Positions 39,630 through 47,567 of a DNA stretch of 51,246 bases are shown here, piece by piece. Position 1 is the first letter of the stretch, and each line of letters opens with the position of its first letter. Origin of the DNA: Planctomycetota bacterium (lineage in GTDB: Bacteria > Planctomycetota > Phycisphaerae > UBA1845 > Fen-1342); assembly GCA_016235145.1 (NCBI GenBank), contig JACRLV010000056.1, positions 1 to 51,246 of the forward strand. The letters run 5' to 3'. A model generated the notes under the pieces. It did no database searches. It was not told the origin of the DNA and saw nothing but the letters and a program-made list of their open reading frames with translations. Both the position numbers and the translations under genes were made by a program.

Positions 39630-39898
39630 GCGATCATGGAATCACTATGGATGGCCCCAGGCGGGAAGTCAAGGGGAATTACAGGACAACTGCCGCTCGG
39701 CTATGCAGTGGCTCATCACGGTCCGCGCCTCGACAAGAAGTGCCTGGTTTCGAAAACTGGCACGGCGCTCGTCCGAAACCTCAGCGCCGGCAAACTGCGC
39801 CTCCACCGGCAGCACCACGCGAGCGGCGCATTTCACCATACCAAACAAACCCCGAATTCTTGCTTCAAACCCCGCACGCCGCGCGGTATCGTCTTTGC

Positions 39899-42283
39899 AT
39901 GGCTTCCGGCCTTCGCATTCTGCACCTGGCCGATTCGCACATCGGCGCGCAACTGCCGGCGCGGCCGCGCGTGCGCGGGGCCGTCTCGCGCGGCGATGAC
40001 ATCGTCGCCAGCTATCGCCGCGTGCTCGGCCGGGCGCGGGAACACGAGGTCGATCTCGTGCTTCACGCCGGCGACGTCTTCGACATGCCCGATCCGTCGC
40101 CGCCGGCCGTCTCCGCCGCGGCCGCGCCGCTGCTGGAATTGGCGGCGGCGGGGTTGCCCGTGGTCATCGTGCCGGGAAATCACGAACGCTGCGTCATTCC
40201 CGGATCGCTGCTCTTTGCACACCCGAATATCCACATCCTCGACCGGCCGCGCACGCTGGTGCTCACGCTGCGCGGGACGCGCGTCGCGATCGCGGGCGTG
40301 CCGTTCATCCGCCGGCGGCCGGCGGAGCGATTCGCGGCGGAGCTTGAGCAGACCGGCTGGCCCGCGGCGGCCGCCGACGTGAACATCCTGCTCACGCACC
40401 AGGCGTTCGAGGCCGCAGTCTGCCCACCGGGCGCGTATCGCTTTCGCAGCGGCGAAGACGTGGTCGAGCGCCGCGACGTGCCCGCTGCGTTTCACTACGT
40501 CGCCGCCGGGCACGTGCATCGGCACCAGGTCCTGCGGCGAAACGGCGCGGCCGAGCGAAAACGGGGGCGGCGCGGCGCTTCTGTCGCACCGCCGAGCAGC
40601 CCGCTGCTGGCGCTCGACGCCGCCGACGGCCCGCCGATCGTTTATTGCGGCTCGGTCGATCGCATCAGCTTTGCGGAGCAGGACGAGGCCAAGGGCTGCG
40701 TGTTGATCGAAGAGGCCGGCGGCCGGCTGACGCACCGGTTTCTGGAGCATGACGTGCGGCCGATGCGGCGGCTGCCGATGGATGTTTCGGGGCTGAGCTG
40801 CGAGCAAATCCGCCGGAAAGCGGCTGAATGGGCGCGGGAGCTGCCTCGGGGCGCGCTGGCCCAAGTGCGGTTGAGCGGGCGGACGACGCCGCGCGCGATC
40901 CGCGGGCTGGCGCTGGCCGCTTTTGTGCGTGAAATGCGGCCGGATCTGCTTTTTGATGCGACGGCGCAGGCGATCGAGTTTGCATCGGAGCGGGACATCG
41001 CGGCGGGCGAGCCCGCGAACGGACACGAGGACAGGCCGCGCGCTACGACTTCGGTCGGGCCGCGTCCGATGACGCCGGCGAGCGCGTTCGCCGAGATCGA
41101 CGTAGCGGCGGGCGAAATCGTGTCGTGTGCGAAAGACGCCGTCGCCGAGTTGCCGACGACTTTCGCGACTTACGCCCTGTACGACGCGAAGGATCGGCTG
41201 CTCTACATCGGCAAGGCGACGAACGTGCGGGCTCGCGTGCGGCAGCATCTGGCGGCGCGGCCATCGGGGGCGTATTTCGAGGGCTGGACGCGCGAGATCG
41301 CGCGGGTCGAGGCGCGGCTGGCGCACAGCGATCTGGAATGCCTGTTGGTCGAGGCGGATCGAATCCGCGCGTTACGGCCGCCGTTCAATCGTCAGATGCG
41401 GCAGTGGGAGCGCTACTGCTATCTGTGCGCGGGGCAGCGGCAACATGGCGAGTTGACGATCTGCCGCGAGCCGGCGACGGACGAGGCGGCGGACGGGCTG
41501 CGATTCTTCGGTCCCTATCGCAGCCGGTTCGAAGCGGCTGCAATCGCCGAGGCGACTGCCGCACTCTTCGGTCTGGCCTATTGCACGCCGCTGCCGACAT
41601 ATCTGATTCGGCCGCGCCGCAACCGCCGCGGGGCGCCGATCGTCGCGCTGCCGCAGGCCGCGAATCTGTGCGATCGCTACTACGCGAAGCAGTGCTGCGG
41701 CCCATGTGCCCATCGCATCGGCGAGGCCGACTATTCCGCCGCCCTCGACCGCCGCGCCGCGCTGCTGGAAGGGCGAGACGATTCCGCTTTCGCCGCCGCG
41801 GAGGCCGAATTGGCGGACCGTTTGGCCAGCAGCAACGAGGAGCTCGACGAGGTCGTCGCGGAACGGGTCCGTTTCTACGAGACGCTGCGGCGAGCGTACG
41901 AGCACGGCCGCTTGCTGGCGGCGGCGTTGGGCTTGCTGGGCTCGACGCTTGAAATGCCGGGCCCTTATGGTGAGGTCACGCTGGCACATCTGCACGACGC
42001 CGGCGTGCGCATCGAACGTCGCCGGGCCGATTCGGCGGCGGCGCCTCGGCGAATCAGCAGTAGCGTCGGACCTCCGAGTCCGACGGGGTCTTCGATCATA
42101 GACTCGTCGTCGGACTCGGAGGTCCGACGCTACGAAATCGACCGCACACGGGCTCGGCGCAGCGGACCCCCCAACCCCAATCGCGACGGGTTGCCCGGCA
42201 CGCGCCCAGCACGCCGATCGATCCCGAAGAGCATGCTCGACTGCCTTTGCGCGGCGACGCGTATCGATCGACGTGACTGCTAA
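39899..42283 (+). CDS. SbcD/Mre11-like metallophosphoesterase fused to Cho/UvrC-N-terminal-half (GIY-YIG + Cys-rich + UVR-like) nuclease
   Basis: N-terminal ILHLADSHIG...LHAGDVFD...VVIVPGNHE...LLTHQ...AAGHVHRHQ are calcineurin-like phosphoesterase motifs of DNA-repair exonucleases. The C-terminal half has YALYDAKDRLLYIGKATNVRARVRQH...LECLLVEADRIRALRPPFNRQ (GIY-YIG), FGPYRSR, CDRYYAKQCCGPCAHRIGEADY, and a helical UVR-like segment. I chose the start at MASGLRILHL. The last 75 or so codons run through a REP-like palindrome. Confidence 0.85.
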   Translation: MASGLRILHLADSHIGAQLPARPRVRGAVSRGDDIVASYRRVLGRAREHEVDLVLHAGDVFDMPDPSPPAVSAAAAPLLELAAAGLPVVIVPGNHERCVIPGSLLFAHPNIHILDRPRTLVLTLRGTRVAIAGVPFIRRRPAERFAAELEQTGWPAAAADVNILLTHQAFEAAVCPPGAYRFRSGEDVVERRDVPAAFHYVAAGHVHRHQVLRRNGAAERKRGRRGASVAPPSSPLLALDAADGPPIVYCGSVDRISFAEQDEAKGCVLIEEAGGRLTHRFLEHDVRPMRRLPMDVSGLSCEQIRRKAAEWARELPRGALAQVRLSGRTTPRAIRGLALAAFVREMRPDLLFDATAQAIEFASERDIAAGEPANGHEDRPRATTSVGPRPMTPASAFAEIDVAAGEIVSCAKDAVAELPTTFATYALYDAKDRLLYIGKATNVRARVRQHLAARPSGAYFEGWTREIARVEARLAHSDLECLLVEADRIRALRPPFNRQMRQWERYCYLCAGQRQHGELTICREPATDEAADGLRFFGPYRSRFEAAAIAEATAALFGLAYCTPLPTYLIRPRRNRRGAPIVALPQAANLCDRYYAKQCCGPCAHRIGEADYSAALDRRAALLEGRDDSAFAAAEAELADRLASSNEELDEVVAERVRFYETLRRAYEHGRLLAAALGLLGSTLEMPGPYGEVTLAHLHDAGVRIERRRADSAAAPRRISSSVGPPSPTGSSIIDSSSDSEVRRYEIDRTRARRSGPPNPNRDGLPGTRPARRSIPKSMLDCLCAATRIDRRDC
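42060..42133. repeat. second copy of the REPIN-like nested palindrome
   Basis: GTAGCGTCGGACCTCCGAGTCCGACG (42060-42085) and its exact reverse complement (42108-42133), with a 22-nt spacer. The arms are identical to those at 1051-1123. Confidence 0.9.
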
Positions 42284-42548: not shown

Positions 42549-43241
42549 ATGAACGCAATGAAAATGCGCTTGGTCGCCGTGCTGGCCGGTTCGCTCGCGT
42601 TTGCGGGGACCGCATTCGCGGACTACGAGAACGTCAACGATGTTCTCCGCTTTTATGAAGCCGAAGGGACTGTGGGCGGCGAGTACATCGGCCAGAACCT
42701 CACCCAGCCCGCGCTGGCCCAGTTCCGCACGTTCTGTCTTGAGCGGCACGTCATGTTTGATTTTGATCCGGCGGGATTCAACGTCGCCGGCGTGACCGAT
42801 CGGGCGATGCTCCAGAACGACCCGCTTTCGGCCCAGGTTGCGTACCTGTATACGCAGTTCCGCGCGGGTTCGCTCTCGAGCTACGACTACGGCGCGGGCC
42901 GTGCGATCTCGGCGGACGAACTCCAGGAAGCGATGTGGTATCTCGAAAACGAGATTCCCGCGTCGGATGGACAGGCGGCGGCCTGGATCGCGGAGGCGAA
43001 CGCGGCCGTGGCGGTCGGCGGCTCCTGGTACAACTCCTGGGGCAACGGCGCGGGCGGCTATGACGGCCTGGACTATCTGGGCACCGTCCGGGTGCTGAAT
43101 CTGACCTGGGCGACGACCCGCGGCGGCTTCAACGTCGGCGATGACGCGCAGGACATGCTGACGCTGATTCCCGCGCCCGGCGCTGCGCTGCTCGGCACGA
43201 TCGGCCTGGCGTTCCTGCGAGCGCTGAAGCGCAAGGCGTAA
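42549..43241 (+). CDS. surface protein with thioester-domain-like (TED/TQXA-like) motifs and PEP-CTERM-like anchor, paralog 1
   Basis: Signal peptide MNAMKMRLVAVLAGSLAFAGTAFA. FRTFCLE (Cys63, nt 42735-42737), VAYLYTQF, and ELQEAMWYLE (Gln126, nt 42924-42926). C-terminal IPAPGAALLGTIGLAFLRALKRKA. Confidence 0.85.
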   Translation: MNAMKMRLVAVLAGSLAFAGTAFADYENVNDVLRFYEAEGTVGGEYIGQNLTQPALAQFRTFCLERHVMFDFDPAGFNVAGVTDRAMLQNDPLSAQVAYLYTQFRAGSLSSYDYGAGRAISADELQEAMWYLENEIPASDGQAAAWIAEANAAVAVGGSWYNSWGNGAGGYDGLDYLGTVRVLNLTWATTRGGFNVGDDAQDMLTLIPAPGAALLGTIGLAFLRALKRKA

Positions 43242-43269
43242 GGCGCCGCAATCCGATGGATCGCGCGAA

Positions 43270-43300
43270 GGACCGGATTTTTGTCCGGTTCCTCTTTTTT
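43270..43300 (+). terminator. Rho-independent terminator after paralog 1
   Basis: GGACCGGA-tttttg-TCCGGTTCC (one bulged T) followed by TCTTTTTT, 29 nt after the stop. Confidence 0.7.
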
Positions 43301-43429
43301 GCGCGCTGATGGCGGGAAGATTGAGGCGAGTTTGTAGTCGTTTGTACATCCTCAGGAGCGCTGCGCGACAAAGTATCGGCCTGTTGATTTCCGCCTGAAA
43401 CGCCGCTGGATTCAGGGTGGTACTTTGCG

Positions 43430-43458
43430 TTGACTCCACCGGATGGCATGGCTACAAA
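43430..43458 (+). promoter_or_regulatory. sigma70-like promoter candidate TTGACT-N17-TACAAA (paralog 2)
   Basis: TTGACT at 43430-43435 and TACAAA at 43453-43458, with 17-nt spacing. Confidence 0.45.
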
Positions 43459-43550
43459 CGGTAGGGGACATGGGGGAAGATCCGCGATCCGAAGCGGATC
43501 TCATCAGGAAGCCGGCGGGATTTCTAATCACGCTTGCTTCGGGGTGTGCC

Positions 43551-44279
43551 ATGAACACGATCAGACTGCGCTGGGTCGCGGTGTTGGTTGGCTCGCTTTC
43601 GCTGGCAGGAACCGCCTTGGCGGACAACCAGCCTGTTGGCGACGTGATCAGCTCCTATGACGCCGGTGCAGCCGAAGTCACCCATACCACAACGGACTCG
43701 CGCGCCCGTTTTCGCGCGTTGTTTCTGGAGCGCGGGAATCGAACCGGCCGAAAGCTGACAGGCCTCGCCGCCTTCAAGGCCCTGTTCGGCGGCCGCCACC
43801 GTTGGGCGCGGGCGCACGCCGACCAGCTCGATCAGGTGATTTGGCGCTTCGACGACCAGCTTTGTCTCGTCGACCAGAACGCCACCTGGGCCGCCCGGGT
43901 AAACGCCGCCGCTGTTGTCGGCAGATCGTCGTACGGCGATCGCAGCTCCAACAGGGGTAGTGGGAATGGCGGCAACACGAGCGGCAGCGGCGACTCGGCC
44001 GCCGGCGGCACGGGCGACGCGGGGGCAAACGATGCCGGCGGTGGCGGCAAGGGCAGCGGTGGCACGGGCAGCGGCGGCGGTTCCGGCACAAACAACGATC
44101 GTGGGCTGCATCCTCCGGGAGACGACCGGACAGTGAATCCGGATCCGGGCACGGACGGGAAATGTCCCACGGGAAGTGGAAGTACTCAAGAACAAATCAC
44201 GATCGTCCCAGCGCCGGGCGCCGCATTGCTGGGCGCGCTCGGCCTGGCATTCCTGCGGGCACTGAAGCGCCGGGCGTAG
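43551..44279 (+). CDS. degenerate paralog 2 (Cys and Gln lost, Gly/Ser-rich insert) with PEP-CTERM-like anchor
   Basis: Signal peptide MNTIRLRWVAVLVGSLSLAGTALA. FRALFLE aligns with FRTFCLE, so Cys is replaced by Phe. QLDQVIWRF aligns with ELQEAIWRL, so Gln is replaced by Asp. It has a low-complexity GSGNGGNTSGSGDSAAGGTGDAG... insert. C-terminal VPAPGAALLGALGLAFLRALKRRA. Confidence 0.8.
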   Translation: MNTIRLRWVAVLVGSLSLAGTALADNQPVGDVISSYDAGAAEVTHTTTDSRARFRALFLERGNRTGRKLTGLAAFKALFGGRHRWARAHADQLDQVIWRFDDQLCLVDQNATWAARVNAAAVVGRSSYGDRSSNRGSGNGGNTSGSGDSAAGGTGDAGANDAGGGGKGSGGTGSGGGSGTNNDRGLHPPGDDRTVNPDPGTDGKCPTGSGSTQEQITIVPAPGAALLGALGLAFLRALKRRA

Positions 44280-44318
44280 GACGCGACGCTGCCGCCGGCC
44301 ATTCAGGATTCACACTTG

Positions 44319-44346
44319 GAGGGATCGGCTTCCGGGCCGATCCCTC
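44319..44346 (+). terminator. hairpin/terminator candidate after paralog 2
   Basis: GAGGGATCGGC-ttccgg-GCCGATCCCTC, a perfect 11-bp stem, followed by only a weak T tract (TGCTTAT). Confidence 0.45.
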
Positions 44347-44515
44347 TGCTTATCGGTGCAGAGCGCGGCGACAACTTTCGCCGACAGACTCGGAACGCCT
44401 CGATTCGCGCAGCGCCTTGCCCGGTAATTGGTGCAACCAATGCACAGAAAAGCATACTTCGCGGAAATCGGCATTGGGCAGCAACAACTGTATTGTTTTG
44501 CCGCGCTTTTGTATG

Positions 44516-44544
44516 TTGACTCGCTCGGCGGCGCTCGCTAGAAA
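44516..44544 (+). promoter_or_regulatory. sigma70-like promoter candidate TTGACT-N17-TAGAAA (paralog 3)
   Basis: TTGACT at 44516-44521 and TAGAAA at 44539-44544, with 17-nt spacing. Confidence 0.5.
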
Positions 44545-44640
44545 CTACAGAGGATCACCTGGGGGATGTGCCGCGTTGCGACGTGCGGTCTGCGCATCGT
44601 CGGCGGGAATTCCCAATAATGCATGTTGGGGGGACATGAT

Positions 44641-45333
44641 ATGAACGCGATGAAAATACGTAACCTTGCCGTGTTGGCCGGCTCACTCGTGCTCGTTGGC
44701 GCCGCCTTTGCGGATAACGAGCAGGTCGGCGACCGGATTCGCTTCTACGACGCCGCGGGAACACTGGCCGGCGAATTCGGGATCGATAACCTCACGCAGA
44801 CCTCGCTGGCGGACTTTCGGACCTTCTGTGTCGAACGCCGCAGCTACATGGACTTCGATTCACGCGGCTTCAACGTCGTCGGCGTGACTGATCGGGCCAT
44901 GCCCCAGAATGACCAGATATCGGCCCAGACCGCGTATCTCTACAGCCAGTTCCGCGCCGGCACGCTTTCGAACTACAGCTACGGCGGGTCGCGGACCGCC
45001 TCGGCCGACGAACTTCAGGAAGCGATCTGGCGCTTGGAAGGTGAACTCAGCGGCGCCAACGGACAGGCCGCCGCCTGGATCGCAGAGGCGAACGCCGCAG
45101 TCGCCACGGGCGGATCCTGGTACGACCAGTGGGGCAACGGCGCCGGCGGCTACGACGGCCTCAACTTCCTCGGCAACGTTCGCGTCCTGAACCTGACCTG
45201 GGGCAGTTCACGCAACGGCCATTACGCCGGCGAAAACGCGCAGGATCAACTGACGCTGATCCCCGCGCCGGGCGCCGCCTTGCTCGGCGCGATCGGCCTG
45301 GCGCTGCTGCGCTCCTTGAAGAGACGTGCGTAG
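44641..45333 (+). CDS. surface protein with thioester-domain-like motifs and PEP-CTERM-like anchor, paralog 3
   Basis: MNAMKIRNLAVLAGSLVLVGAAFA signal. FRTFCVE (Cys63, nt 44827-44829), TAYLYSQF, and ELQEAIWRLE (Gln126, nt 45016-45018). C-terminal IPAPGAALLGAIGLALLRSLKRRA. Collinear with paralog 1. Confidence 0.85.
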   Translation: MNAMKIRNLAVLAGSLVLVGAAFADNEQVGDRIRFYDAAGTLAGEFGIDNLTQTSLADFRTFCVERRSYMDFDSRGFNVVGVTDRAMPQNDQISAQTAYLYSQFRAGTLSNYSYGGSRTASADELQEAIWRLEGELSGANGQAAAWIAEANAAVATGGSWYDQWGNGAGGYDGLNFLGNVRVLNLTWGSSRNGHYAGENAQDQLTLIPAPGAALLGAIGLALLRSLKRRA

Positions 45334-46772: not shown

Positions 46773-47567
46773 TCATGGACACGCGAAGCCGAAATTCGCC
46801 AGCAACGTCGCGAGATCCTGGATGTCCACGTCGCTGTCGCCGTCAAGGTCGCCCTGCTCAGGCGTCGTGCCGGTCAAGCCGAAATTGGACAGCAGCACCG
46901 CAAGATCGCTCAGGCTGACCGTTCCGTCGCTATCCAGATCGCCCGTGCAGGGCACAGCGCCCGAGCTGAGCAGCGAATACGCGACGTCATTGCCCTGTTC
47001 GGTGAAATTGCCGGGCGAGAAGAACCATTGATGTGCGTGCGGCAGGGTCGTTGTGCTGGACGCGATCCAGCCCCACTGCGGCTCGTTGGCGGTTCCGCCG
47101 CGCGGCAGGATGGCGACCACGCTGACCCAGTATGTCGCGTCCGACGAAATATTGAACGCGGGGCTCAGCGAGACGGAATACTGGTATCCAGCGAAACCGA
47201 GCGATGGATGCACGTAGTAGTTGGTCTCGGTGAAGCTGAAGACGTCCTGCTCGAAGATGCGCGTGCCGGGGTGGCCGCCGTTGTCGGTGTAGAAGCGAAT
47301 CGTGAATCCCTCGGTGTGGCCCTCCTGGCCGAGCGGCGTCGCATAGCCGCCGTAGAACTCGACCTGGTCGACGTTCCAGCCGGTCTGGCCGACGAAATTG
47401 TCGGCGACCTCGCTGAACCAACCCAATCCGCCGGGGTTGCGGGCGTCCTGCGACGACAGTCCGCCGAAGGAGTTGACCTGCGGCTGCGACCAGAGCACGT
47501 CGGCGGTGGCGGCGGCGGTGAAAGTGCAGCCCGCGAGCATACAGATTTGAAGCAGTGATCGACGCAT
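46773..47567 (-). CDS. secreted beta-sandwich protein with C-terminal dockerin-like module
   Basis: Signal peptide present. Unassigned N-terminal domain (VLWSQPQ...ADNF...VEFYGGY...FTIRFYTDNGGHPG). C-terminus GDLDSDGTVSLSDLAVLLSNFG...GDLDGDSDVDIQDLATLLANFG. Confidence 0.8.
   Translation of the reverse strand: MRRSLLQICMLAGCTFTAAATADVLWSQPQVNSFGGLSSQDARNPGGLGWFSEVADNFVGQTGWNVDQVEFYGGYATPLGQEGHTEGFTIRFYTDNGGHPGTRIFEQDVFSFTETNYYVHPSLGFAGYQYSVSLSPAFNISSDATYWVSVVAILPRGGTANEPQWGWIASSTTTLPHAHQWFFSPGNFTEQGNDVAYSLLSSGAVPCTGDLDSDGTVSLSDLAVLLSNFGLTGTTPEQGDLDGDSDVDIQDLATLLANFGFACP

Follow-up and report, generated by a model that had tools for sequence, protein, structure and literature searches.

Organization of the locus

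Three tandem genes for small secreted proteins, here called paralogues 1 to 3 (P1, P2 and P3; Table 1), lie in a stretch of 51,246 nucleotides from a Planctomycetota bacterium of the class Phycisphaerae (GenBank assembly GCA_016235145.1, contig JACRLV010000056.1), and this whole stretch is referred to below as the window. A sequence-only reading of the window had described the products as minimal covalent adhesins resembling the thioester domains (TEDs) of Gram-positive bacteria and displayed through a PEP-CTERM-like tail, and we followed up this description by computational analysis. The tandem arrangement, the motifs, the tails and the substitutions in P2 that it listed are all present in the sequence. 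P1 and P3 are collinear, as had been stated, with 69% identity and no gaps; their length had been given as 231 amino acids (aa) and is in fact 230 aa, codon 231 being the stop.

The ATG of P1 at 42549 is preceded by GGAG at a spacing of 7 nt. The signal peptide of P1 appears in the full-length AlphaFold2 (AF2) model as a helix at residues 6-18 with a low predicted local distance difference test score (pLDDT), and P3 likewise starts with a Sec-type signal peptide, read from the sequence, that ends in A-F-A before D. Both proteins have one Cys each, Cys63, located in F-C-L-E of P1 and F-C-V-E of P3. The second motif, which contains Gln126 and Trp130, reads L-Q-E-A-I-W in P3, and residues 97-104 between the two motifs are VAYLYTQF in P1 and TAYLYSQF in P3. 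All three paralogues end in [IV]PAPGAALLG...LKR[KR]A, a tail that none of the other open reading frames (ORFs) of at least 60 aa in the window has.

Table 1 Positions of the triplet and its features in the window
Feature	Coordinates	Strand	Remarks
P1 gene	42549..43241	+	230 aa + stop; signal peptide, TED-like domain, PAP-type PEP-CTERM tail
P1 Sec-type signal peptide, residues 1-24	42549..42620	+	cleavage site (...AGTAFA, then D) judged by eye
P1 TED-like domain, residues 25-207	42621..43169	+	AF2 model, Foldseek, hhalign
P1 F-C-L-E motif	42732..42743	+	Cys63 at 42735-42737, candidate thioester cysteine
P1 L-Q-E-A-M-W motif	42921..42938	+	Gln126 at 42924-42926, plus Trp130; on helix 118-132
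P1 A-Q-D-M-L motif	43146..43160	+	Gln201 at 43149-43151, candidate bond-forming Gln; start of last β-strand
P1 PEP-CTERM-type sorting signal	43170..43238	+	P-A-P, hydrophobic helix, LKRKA
Terminator-like hairpin (43270-43291) and T-run	43270..43301	+	consensus scan; 9-pair stem, then CTCTTTTTTG
P2 gene	43551..44279	+	242 aa; degenerate copy, signal peptide and PAP tail retained
P2 FRALFLE	43710-43730		Cys to Phe
P2 LDQVIW	43827-43844		Gln to Asp
P2 T-Q-E-Q-I	44184-44198		Gln201 equivalent retained
P3 gene	44641..45333	+	230 aa + stop
P3 Cys63	44827-44829	+	codon checked
P3 Gln126	45016-45018	+	codon checked
P3 Gln201	45241-45243	+	codon checked
P3 P-A-P	45262-45270	+	codons checked

Conservation of the domain and of its three motifs

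Searching with P1 at E <= 1e-3 retrieved 175 protein clusters. Almost all of these are 190-280 aa long, and those with a name come from metagenome-assembled genomes (MAGs) of Phycisphaerae and Sedimentisphaerales. With one genome taken per species, a pattern scan yielded 266 confirmed loci. The listed loci belong to Planctomycetota (Phycisphaerae, Pirellulales, Planctomycetales, Kuenenia) as well as to Acidobacteriota/Vicinamibacterales, Syntrophales, Verrucomicrobiota, Geobacteraceae, Sulfuritalea and another betaproteobacterial MAG; in these species-representative genomes the family is found in diderm phyla throughout. Conservation was counted over 214 sequences, composed of 120 database members, P1 and P3 included, and 94 further copies from 80 of the 266 loci. 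The hidden Markov model of the family domain matches P1 with an E-value of 9.5e-47 and P3 with 1.2e-48.

Just 16 positions of the 183-residue domain are conserved at the level of at least 93%: G44, F62, C63, D91, A98, L100, F104, L125, Q126, W130, E133, E135, A150, N184, Q201 and L204. Phe62 and Gln126 are present in 214/214 sequences, Cys63 and Gln201 in 212/214 each and Trp130 in 211/214, so that motif conservation in the family of P1 and P3 is far beyond chance. Exactly one Cys occurs in 171/214 domains, which excludes an intradomain disulfide in these, and Cys63 is accordingly an unpaired and nearly invariant cysteine of a secreted domain. A group of near-invariant acidic residues (FCLExxE, D91, WYLExE, QD) suggests that a defined site for binding or catalysis adjoins the putative thioester. 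Mean-field direct coupling analysis of 210 sequences was not used, being too noisy and unable to score invariant columns.

Pfam and NCBIfam scans gave no match for P1, P2 or P3 even at E <= 10. The sole Pfam match of the family consensus was PEP-CTERM, the N-terminal domain is without a model in either collection, and matches of the members are confined to the sorting tail. The NCBIfam assignments obtained (NF038129, FxDxF, PepA and others) were rejected as tail-only matches lying below the family cut-offs, the one exception being marginal (FxDxF for P0010, 50.3 bits with a cut-off of 50), and a lone insulin-degrading-enzyme match of the family profile among sequences of the Protein Data Bank (PDB), with E about 0.5, was judged spurious.

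Two to four copies of the gene are carried by 11/80 loci. The largest array seen, four tandem genes, is that of a Planctomycetaceae MAG (L036:7404-11551, + strand), where it lies directly downstream of genes for a sugar transferase and a roughly 1400-aa tetratricopeptide repeat (TPR) protein; locus L071 has three copies. A cultured and completely sequenced organism, Syntrophus buswellii DM-2 (NZ_CP175563.1), carries a member with the Cys, both Gln residues and the Trp intact (L076:9554-10543, + strand). Some members look longer, namely a copy in a 466-aa stop-to-stop frame with Trp130 replaced by Tyr (L005:6130-7527, + strand) and P0092 with 360 aa.

In characterised TEDs three motifs are distinguished (PMC4450167, PMC6194298). 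The first, [YFL]-C-Φ-ζ, provides the bonding Cys on strand C. The second, TQxxΦW, is located on the central helix α2, where its Gln and Trp form hydrogen bonds with the backbone of the Cys without being needed for the thioester bond to form. The third, a weak Φ-Q-ζ-Φ-Φ on the last β-strand, carries the bonding Gln, and the distance from the Cys to this residue is 129-153 residues in class I TEDs.

Counterparts of all three are found in the family. The first reads F-C-[LVI]-[EQ], with Cys63 directly after strand 59-61 of the AF2 models. The second, L-Q-x-A-[IF]-W, falls on the second helix (118-132), with Leu replacing Thr in a motif that is not universal even among TEDs. The third, [ARSK]-Q-D-[QMV]-L, occupies residues 200-204 and places Gln201 at strand 203-206. 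Cys63 and Gln201 are separated by 138 residues, inside the range given above for class I, and Gln201 precedes the sorting motif by 7-10 residues in 205/210 members (7 in P1).

The sequence-only reading had proposed a bond between Cys63 and Gln126, 63 residues apart, and on this point it has to be revised. Gln126 lies in the middle of a helix in both AF2 models, as the equivalent of the TQxxΦW glutamine, and 63 residues is a normal spacing from the Cys to that helix, which amounts to about 55-60 residues in SaTIE-like TEDs, and not one from the Cys to a bonding Gln. From the motif layout, Gln126 and Trp130 appear to be the equivalent of the helix motif and not bond-forming, and Gln201 is the most likely candidate for the bond-forming residue. 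Closeness of Cys63 and Gln126 in a model does not discriminate between the two assignments, because any TED would show it.

Structural and profile similarity to thioester domains

The AF2 model of full-length P1 has a pLDDT of 89.8, and that of the trimmed domain (residues 25-207) reaches 94.4 with a predicted template modelling (TM) score of 0.90. The predicted order of elements, four strands, three core helices with two short ones and two final strands, is the published layout of class I TEDs (PMC4450167, PMC6194298); the third strand is followed by Cys63, the second helix carries Gln126, and Gln201 is located at the last strand. Solved TEDs combine a six-stranded β-barrel with a bundle of three helices. 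The trimmed model, freed of the signal and anchor helices, was compared by Foldseek with 350,542 PDB chains. Ranks 1-4 and 6 were taken by 4c0z, the N-terminal class I TED of Streptococcus pyogenes Cpa (Cpa-TED1), with TM-scores of 0.44/0.40 over nearly the whole domain, and the remaining matches among the best 50 had query TM-scores (TMq) of no more than 0.23. It is unlikely that a family specified in advance and having few PDB entries would rank first by chance.

For comparison at the profile level we used nine SaTIE-like TEDs, namely a plasmid-borne TIE-like protein of Enterococcus faecium and eight relatives, the search with the E. faecium TED having given 2 proteins and an exhaustive search with P0121 having given 13. 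The comparator is sound, as the E. faecium domain matches SaTIE-TED (6fx6) at E 5e-10, with its FCLQ, ATQMLVWE and SYQKL paired with the corresponding SaTIE motifs. Aligned to this profile by hhalign, the family profile scored 29.5 (P = 9.9e-4), in a register that sets TFCLE against aFCiq and LQxAIWylExE against AQlxvWexxxe. None of 150 block-shuffled controls reached this score (mean 18.6, maximum 27.7), none of 150 column-shuffled ones did (mean 12.3, maximum 21.4), and the reversed alignment scored 21.4. In global mode hhalign failed to match the two profiles, as expected from the class II insert, and it found no match when pLS20 TIE and the E. faecium protein were used as single sequences. 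Alignment of the C-terminal sub-profile alone paired Gln201 with the bonding Gln of TEDs and VRVLNL with the preceding strand, at a P of 0.065, which is not significant.

PF08341, the Pfam TED family, was matched weakly by 6/120 members, the best being P0079 (E 0.0059, 17.5 bits, cut-off 22 bits), and is the sole Pfam family other than sorting signals matched by more than 3 of these members. The alignments of P0079 and P0084 begin one residue before the Cys, like that of the E. faecium TED. Known or annotated TEDs themselves score only 23.6 bits (pLS20 TIE) and 20.2 bits (the E. faecium homologue of SaTIE-TED), and phmmer finds no TED in the PDB with pLS20 TIE, so weak scores are normal in this superfamily. 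TIGR03934 is not among the 25 NCBIfam families most frequently matched by family members.

Degenerate and variant copies

The reading frame of P2 is preserved and its sequence is collinear with those of P1 and P3, and we rejected the idea that it is a frameshifted copy. Its identity to them is 33% over the N-terminal part. Between its two altered motif sites it has suffered deletions, in which the equivalents of strand D and helix α1 disappeared, and it has gained a Gly/Ser-rich insert of roughly 45 aa. The family domain profile matches it at E = 1.1, no counterpart was found in 80 related loci, and its codon signature is weaker (G+C of third positions 0.75, compared with 0.81-0.83, and that of second positions raised). 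The sequence-only reading had called P2 a pseudo-TED; the loss of Cys63 and Gln126 stands, and the notion of a folded pseudo-domain does not, given the missing elements and the profile value. To judge by its residues, P2 would be unable to form the bond. It is best read as a lineage-specific decaying duplicate, or alternatively as a copy that now serves as a disordered PEP-CTERM protein.

Among database members a single case, P0004 (237 aa, 45% identical to P1, on a 6.6-kb contig), is otherwise well conserved and has Cys63 changed to Ser and Gln201 to Ala with L-Q-E-A-I-W intact. In one of the L071 copies the Cys is replaced by Thr and both Gln residues are retained.

Sorting signals and neighbouring genes

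P1-P3 have the composition of PEP-CTERM proteins: an N-terminal signal peptide, a P-x-P motif, a hydrophobic helix and a terminal basic cluster. PF07589 (PEP-CTERM) is matched by 97/120 homologues at E <= 10 and VPDSG-CTERM by 7, and the PAP-bearing family consensus reaches 20.8 bits on PF07589 (cut-off 20.7); the window copies themselves fall below the reporting limit of the generic PEP-CTERM models PF07589 and TIGR02595. P-A-P, P-E-P (often inside PVPEP) and P-L-P all occur as the sorting motif in the family, therefore the PAP of the window is a common variant and not an oddity.

Neighbouring genes within 6 kb were clustered, and representatives annotated, at 80 of the 266 loci. An exosortase (PF09721 at E 9e-59; TIGR02602 above cut-off) is found at 10/80, a PrsT-like TPR protein of about 1400 aa (best NCBIfam match TIGR02917, below cut-off) at 22/80, a polysaccharide export protein (Poly_export, PF02563) at 13/80, a polyprenyl glycosylphosphotransferase (sugar transferase, PF02397) at 10/80 and a σ54 response regulator of one protein cluster at 11/80, the L008 member of this cluster satisfying TIGR02915 (PrsR) with 627.7 bits. 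At least one of exosortase, TPR giant, Poly_export and sugar transferase occurs at 34/80 loci. Together with the PF07589 matches this bears out the exosortase-type anchor that had been proposed from the sequence.

At 13/80 loci (L020:10705-11553, - strand, and 12 others) a conserved protein, of about 283 aa in most of them, without Pfam or NCBIfam match adjoins the Poly_export gene, close to the TED-like gene, and may be an uncharacterised component of exosortase/exopolysaccharide (EPS) clusters.

In the window, the immediate neighbours of the triplet are genes for a metallophosphoesterase/GIY-YIG fusion, a xylose-isomerase-like TIM-barrel protein, a DUF7901/dockerin protein and an α/β hydrolase. 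The closest homologue, P0003 (58% identity), is single-copy and stands in an unrelated context, and the triplet is accordingly a local duplication. The terminator-like hairpin after P1 begins 29 nt past the stop codon and is weak evidence, since 5 such sites were counted and 2.6 are expected. Two of the neighbours deserve a note of their own. Directly upstream, an 878-aa ORF (39647-42283, + strand) encodes an unusual fusion of a calcineurin-like/Mre11-type metallophosphoesterase (aa 89-300) with a GIY-YIG nuclease (aa 507-565). About 1.4 kb downstream, a gene on the opposite strand (46773-47567, -) encodes a secreted-looking protein of 264 aa in which DUF7901 precedes a type I dockerin-like domain (DLDGDSDVD...).

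Discussion

The family domain is most likely a distant, compact, class-I-like relative of TEDs. That P1 and P3 carry a TED homologue we hold to be probable, and the full explanation, which includes a thioester between Cys63 and Gln201, is the one we favour on balance, with less assurance. The claim of the sequence-only reading that these are minimal TED-like adhesins is thereby upheld as regards relatedness to TEDs, for which the tests are below threshold and consistent, and abandoned as regards the bonding pair. We file the domain as a TED-like family and not as a member of the Pfam TED family. Its descent is probably from class I TEDs, which it would resemble in its action, and it departs from every TED protein described so far in its range among diderms, its anchor, its lack of a stalk and its compactness.

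From gene anatomy, conservation, homology of the sorting signal, genomic context and the weak, consistent similarity to TEDs we infer a course of events that extends to bond formation, the glutamine involved and the target. P1 and P3 would be exported by the Sec pathway and fold outside the cytoplasm, where the thioester between Cys63 and Gln201 would form autocatalytically with loss of NH3. Exosortase would process the proteins at the P-A-P signal. A nucleophile of the target, an amine or possibly a hydroxyl, could then attack the thioester, leaving a covalent link to the side chain of Gln201. With Gln201 just 7 residues before the sorting motif and no stalk in between, load would be transmitted directly from the anchor to the covalent link. 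Because family members in other genomes are often found beside genes for exosortase, PrsR, PrsT-like proteins and EPS export, the context suggests as target the cell's own exopolysaccharide matrix, neighbouring cells or particles.

Several observations weigh against this explanation. No single similarity test reaches a conventional threshold. The 4c0z match has an E of 0.34, a probability of 0.35 and a TM-score below 0.5 and is not significant alone; other TED entries (5a0l, 5a0g, 2xi9, 6fwv) are not among the best 50 Foldseek matches, and the full-length model, in which the signal and anchor helices are kept, gave no TED match, only junk. The hhalign probability against SaTIE-like TEDs is 21.7%, and the score comes largely from the very motifs that prompted the hypothesis and is thus not fully independent. 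The family profile finds no TED among PDB sequences, and the curated profiles PF08341 and TIGR03934, which the sequence-only reading had named for checking its proposal, do not match the window proteins at E <= 10. Natural variants without the Cys disagree on the glutamine, as P0004 lacks Gln201, P2 lacks Gln126 and the L071 copy lacks neither. Stalk and LPXTG are both absent, in contrast to nearly all known TED proteins; compared with class I TEDs, a PEP-CTERM/exosortase anchor takes the place of LPXTG/sortase, and isopeptide or ester stalk domains and fibronectin-binding repeats are missing. Exosortase and EPS genes were not found in the 51-kb window, by tblastn only, with queries from other loci. 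Finally, near-invariant acidic residues (E65, E68, D91, E133, E135, D202) are without counterpart in the TED motifs, which hints at a more specific site or at other chemistry.

The rival explanations were scored separately, each on its own terms. The last point above leads to the one that survives best, which we nevertheless consider unlikely: the domain would have the descent or the fold of a TED, with its Cys/Gln/Glu cluster serving something other than an internal thioester, be it a cysteine-dependent enzyme acting on exopolysaccharide or peptide, a specific site for a ligand or metal, or a disulfide to another molecule formed by the single Cys. The number of invariant polar residues, with N184 in addition to the six acidic ones, speaks for it, only the Cys and Gln being universal in TEDs, as do the only moderate structural similarity (TM 0.44) and the context of EPS biosynthesis and export in other genomes, where enzymes are also expected. 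Yet the three TED motifs all occur, with the order, spacing and secondary-structure setting expected of them, no similarity to an enzyme family emerged in Pfam, NCBIfam, PDB sequences or Foldseek, and the combination of a single Cys with two invariant Gln in a secreted domain matches the TED pattern exactly.

It is also rather improbable that the resemblance is a coincidence, that is, that two short motifs of low information occur in an unrelated α/β fold of an uncharacterised PEP-CTERM protein. Such a view can draw on similarity statistics that are all sub-threshold and on a hhalign signal that rests on those short motifs, and it is countered by the motif-independent Foldseek search, which ranks a TED first of about 350,000 chains and as the one match with TMq above 0.23 among the best 50. 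The TED-defining residues moreover fall on the few invariant positions of the family, the order of strands and helices, both spacings and the third motif all fit, and PF08341 recurs among the weak matches in the correct register.

Very unlikely, lastly, is a minimal TED with the thioester between Cys63 and Gln126 of L-Q-E-A-[MI]-W, as first read from the sequence, for although Gln126 is the most conserved residue of the family, was lost from P2 together with Cys63 with the Gln201 equivalent retained, and corresponds to a Gln that spatially adjoins the Cys in TEDs, in every TED characterised the TQxxΦW Gln is helical, does no more than hydrogen-bond the Cys backbone and is dispensable, the bond being made by the Gln of the last β-strand (PMC4450167, PMC6194298), the AF2 models put Gln126 in mid-helix, hhalign pairs it with the TQ-motif Gln of SaTIE-like TEDs and not with their bonding Gln, a third conserved Gln motif stands at the expected place, and P0004 lost Cys63 and Gln201 with Gln126 retained.

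Returning to the TED-like domain bonded through Cys63 and Gln201, its possible meaning can be outlined. TEDs are the only bacterial adhesin modules known to bind covalently, and all reports of them concern Gram-positive bacteria, where they sit on stalks anchored by sortase (PMC4450167). In the literature searched we found no paper tying thioester domains to PEP-CTERM, to exosortase or to the phyla concerned here and no reactive-bond domain described for the PEP-CTERM class, in agreement with the earlier statement that the combination was not known to have been characterised. Tentatively, and with more doubt than confidence, we suggest that the family could be the first diderm class of thioester domains, stalk-less and exosortase-sorted, that ties cells through the Cys63-Gln201 bond to the EPS matrix, other cells or particles.

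PEP-CTERM proteins are numerous and almost wholly uncharacterised. If the suggestion is true, their exosortase systems would gain a concrete chemical function in the cohesion of flocs and biofilms, with the cell surface tied irreversibly to amine- or hydroxyl-bearing groups. Thioester chemistry would extend to another type of envelope and, among non-pathogenic settings, to flocs, sediments or anaerobic consortia, over a range comprising Planctomycetota, Acidobacteriota, Verrucomicrobiota, Syntrophales and some Proteobacteria. With a reactive thioester, the binding partners of PEP-CTERM proteins could be trapped as covalent adducts and identified by sequencing these, and a stalk-less domain of about 180 residues would be a compact candidate for protein-ligation tools. 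The cultured carrier S. buswellii DM-2 opens the family to experiment.

Comparison with known systems

Complement C3 and α2-macroglobulin (A2M) use a Cys-Gln thioester to capture nucleophiles covalently, as is proposed here, and bacterial A2Ms are reported from Gram-negative bacteria. In these proteins the Cys and Gln sit in one CGEQ motif of a large multi-domain protein with an unrelated fold, to which nothing in the present family is alike.

Substrates of the PEP-CTERM/exosortase (EpsH, XrtA) system, for example the floc-associated PepA (Haft 2006, PMC1569441), share with the family the P-x-P motif, hydrophobic helix and basic cluster, as well as the company of genes for exosortase, PrsR, PrsT-like TPR proteins, EPS export and sugar transferase. 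Unlike the named NCBIfam families of this class, whose domains it does not match, the family has an N-terminal domain of its own.

With class II TEDs (SaTIE-TED 6FX6, BaTIE 6FWV, EfmTIE86, pLS20 TIE; PF20610) the N-terminal lobe can be aligned, F-C-[LI]-[EQ] to the thioester Cys and L-Q-x-A-I-W-x-x-E to A-Q-x-x-V-W-E (hhalign P 1e-3). These domains contain, before the Gln strand, a β-sandwich of roughly 75 residues that forms a slipknot, an insert absent here, and their proteins have CnaB/SpaA stalks and are encoded on conjugative plasmids of Gram-positive bacteria. The architecture of TIE-type adhesins in general, with LPXTG/sortase anchor and isopeptide or ester stalk, is likewise not that of the family, in which a single domain is followed by the PEP-CTERM-type tail.

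Class I TEDs (Cpa-TED1/TED2, SfbI-TED, FbaB-TED, CpTIE-TED, PnTIE-TED; PF08341; 4C0Z, 2XI9, 5A0L, 5A0G, 5A0N) come closest. The family differs from them in occurring in diderm phyla and not in Firmicutes/Actinobacteria, in a domain that abuts the anchor and has about 180 residues compared with 200-250, in Leu instead of Thr before the helix Gln, in the many extra invariant acidic residues, and in standing below the Pfam threshold with a TM-score of 0.44 and a thioester that is putative. What it has in common with them is [YFL]-C-Φ-ζ with the Cys at a β-strand, followed after about 55-65 residues by Q-x-x-Φ-W in the central helix and, at a distance of about 130-150 residues from the Cys, by Φ-Q-ζ-Φ-Φ in the last strand, together with a succession of strands, three core helices and strands between a Sec signal and a C-terminal sorting signal; and it is from this class that the best structural match of the P1 domain, 4C0Z, comes.

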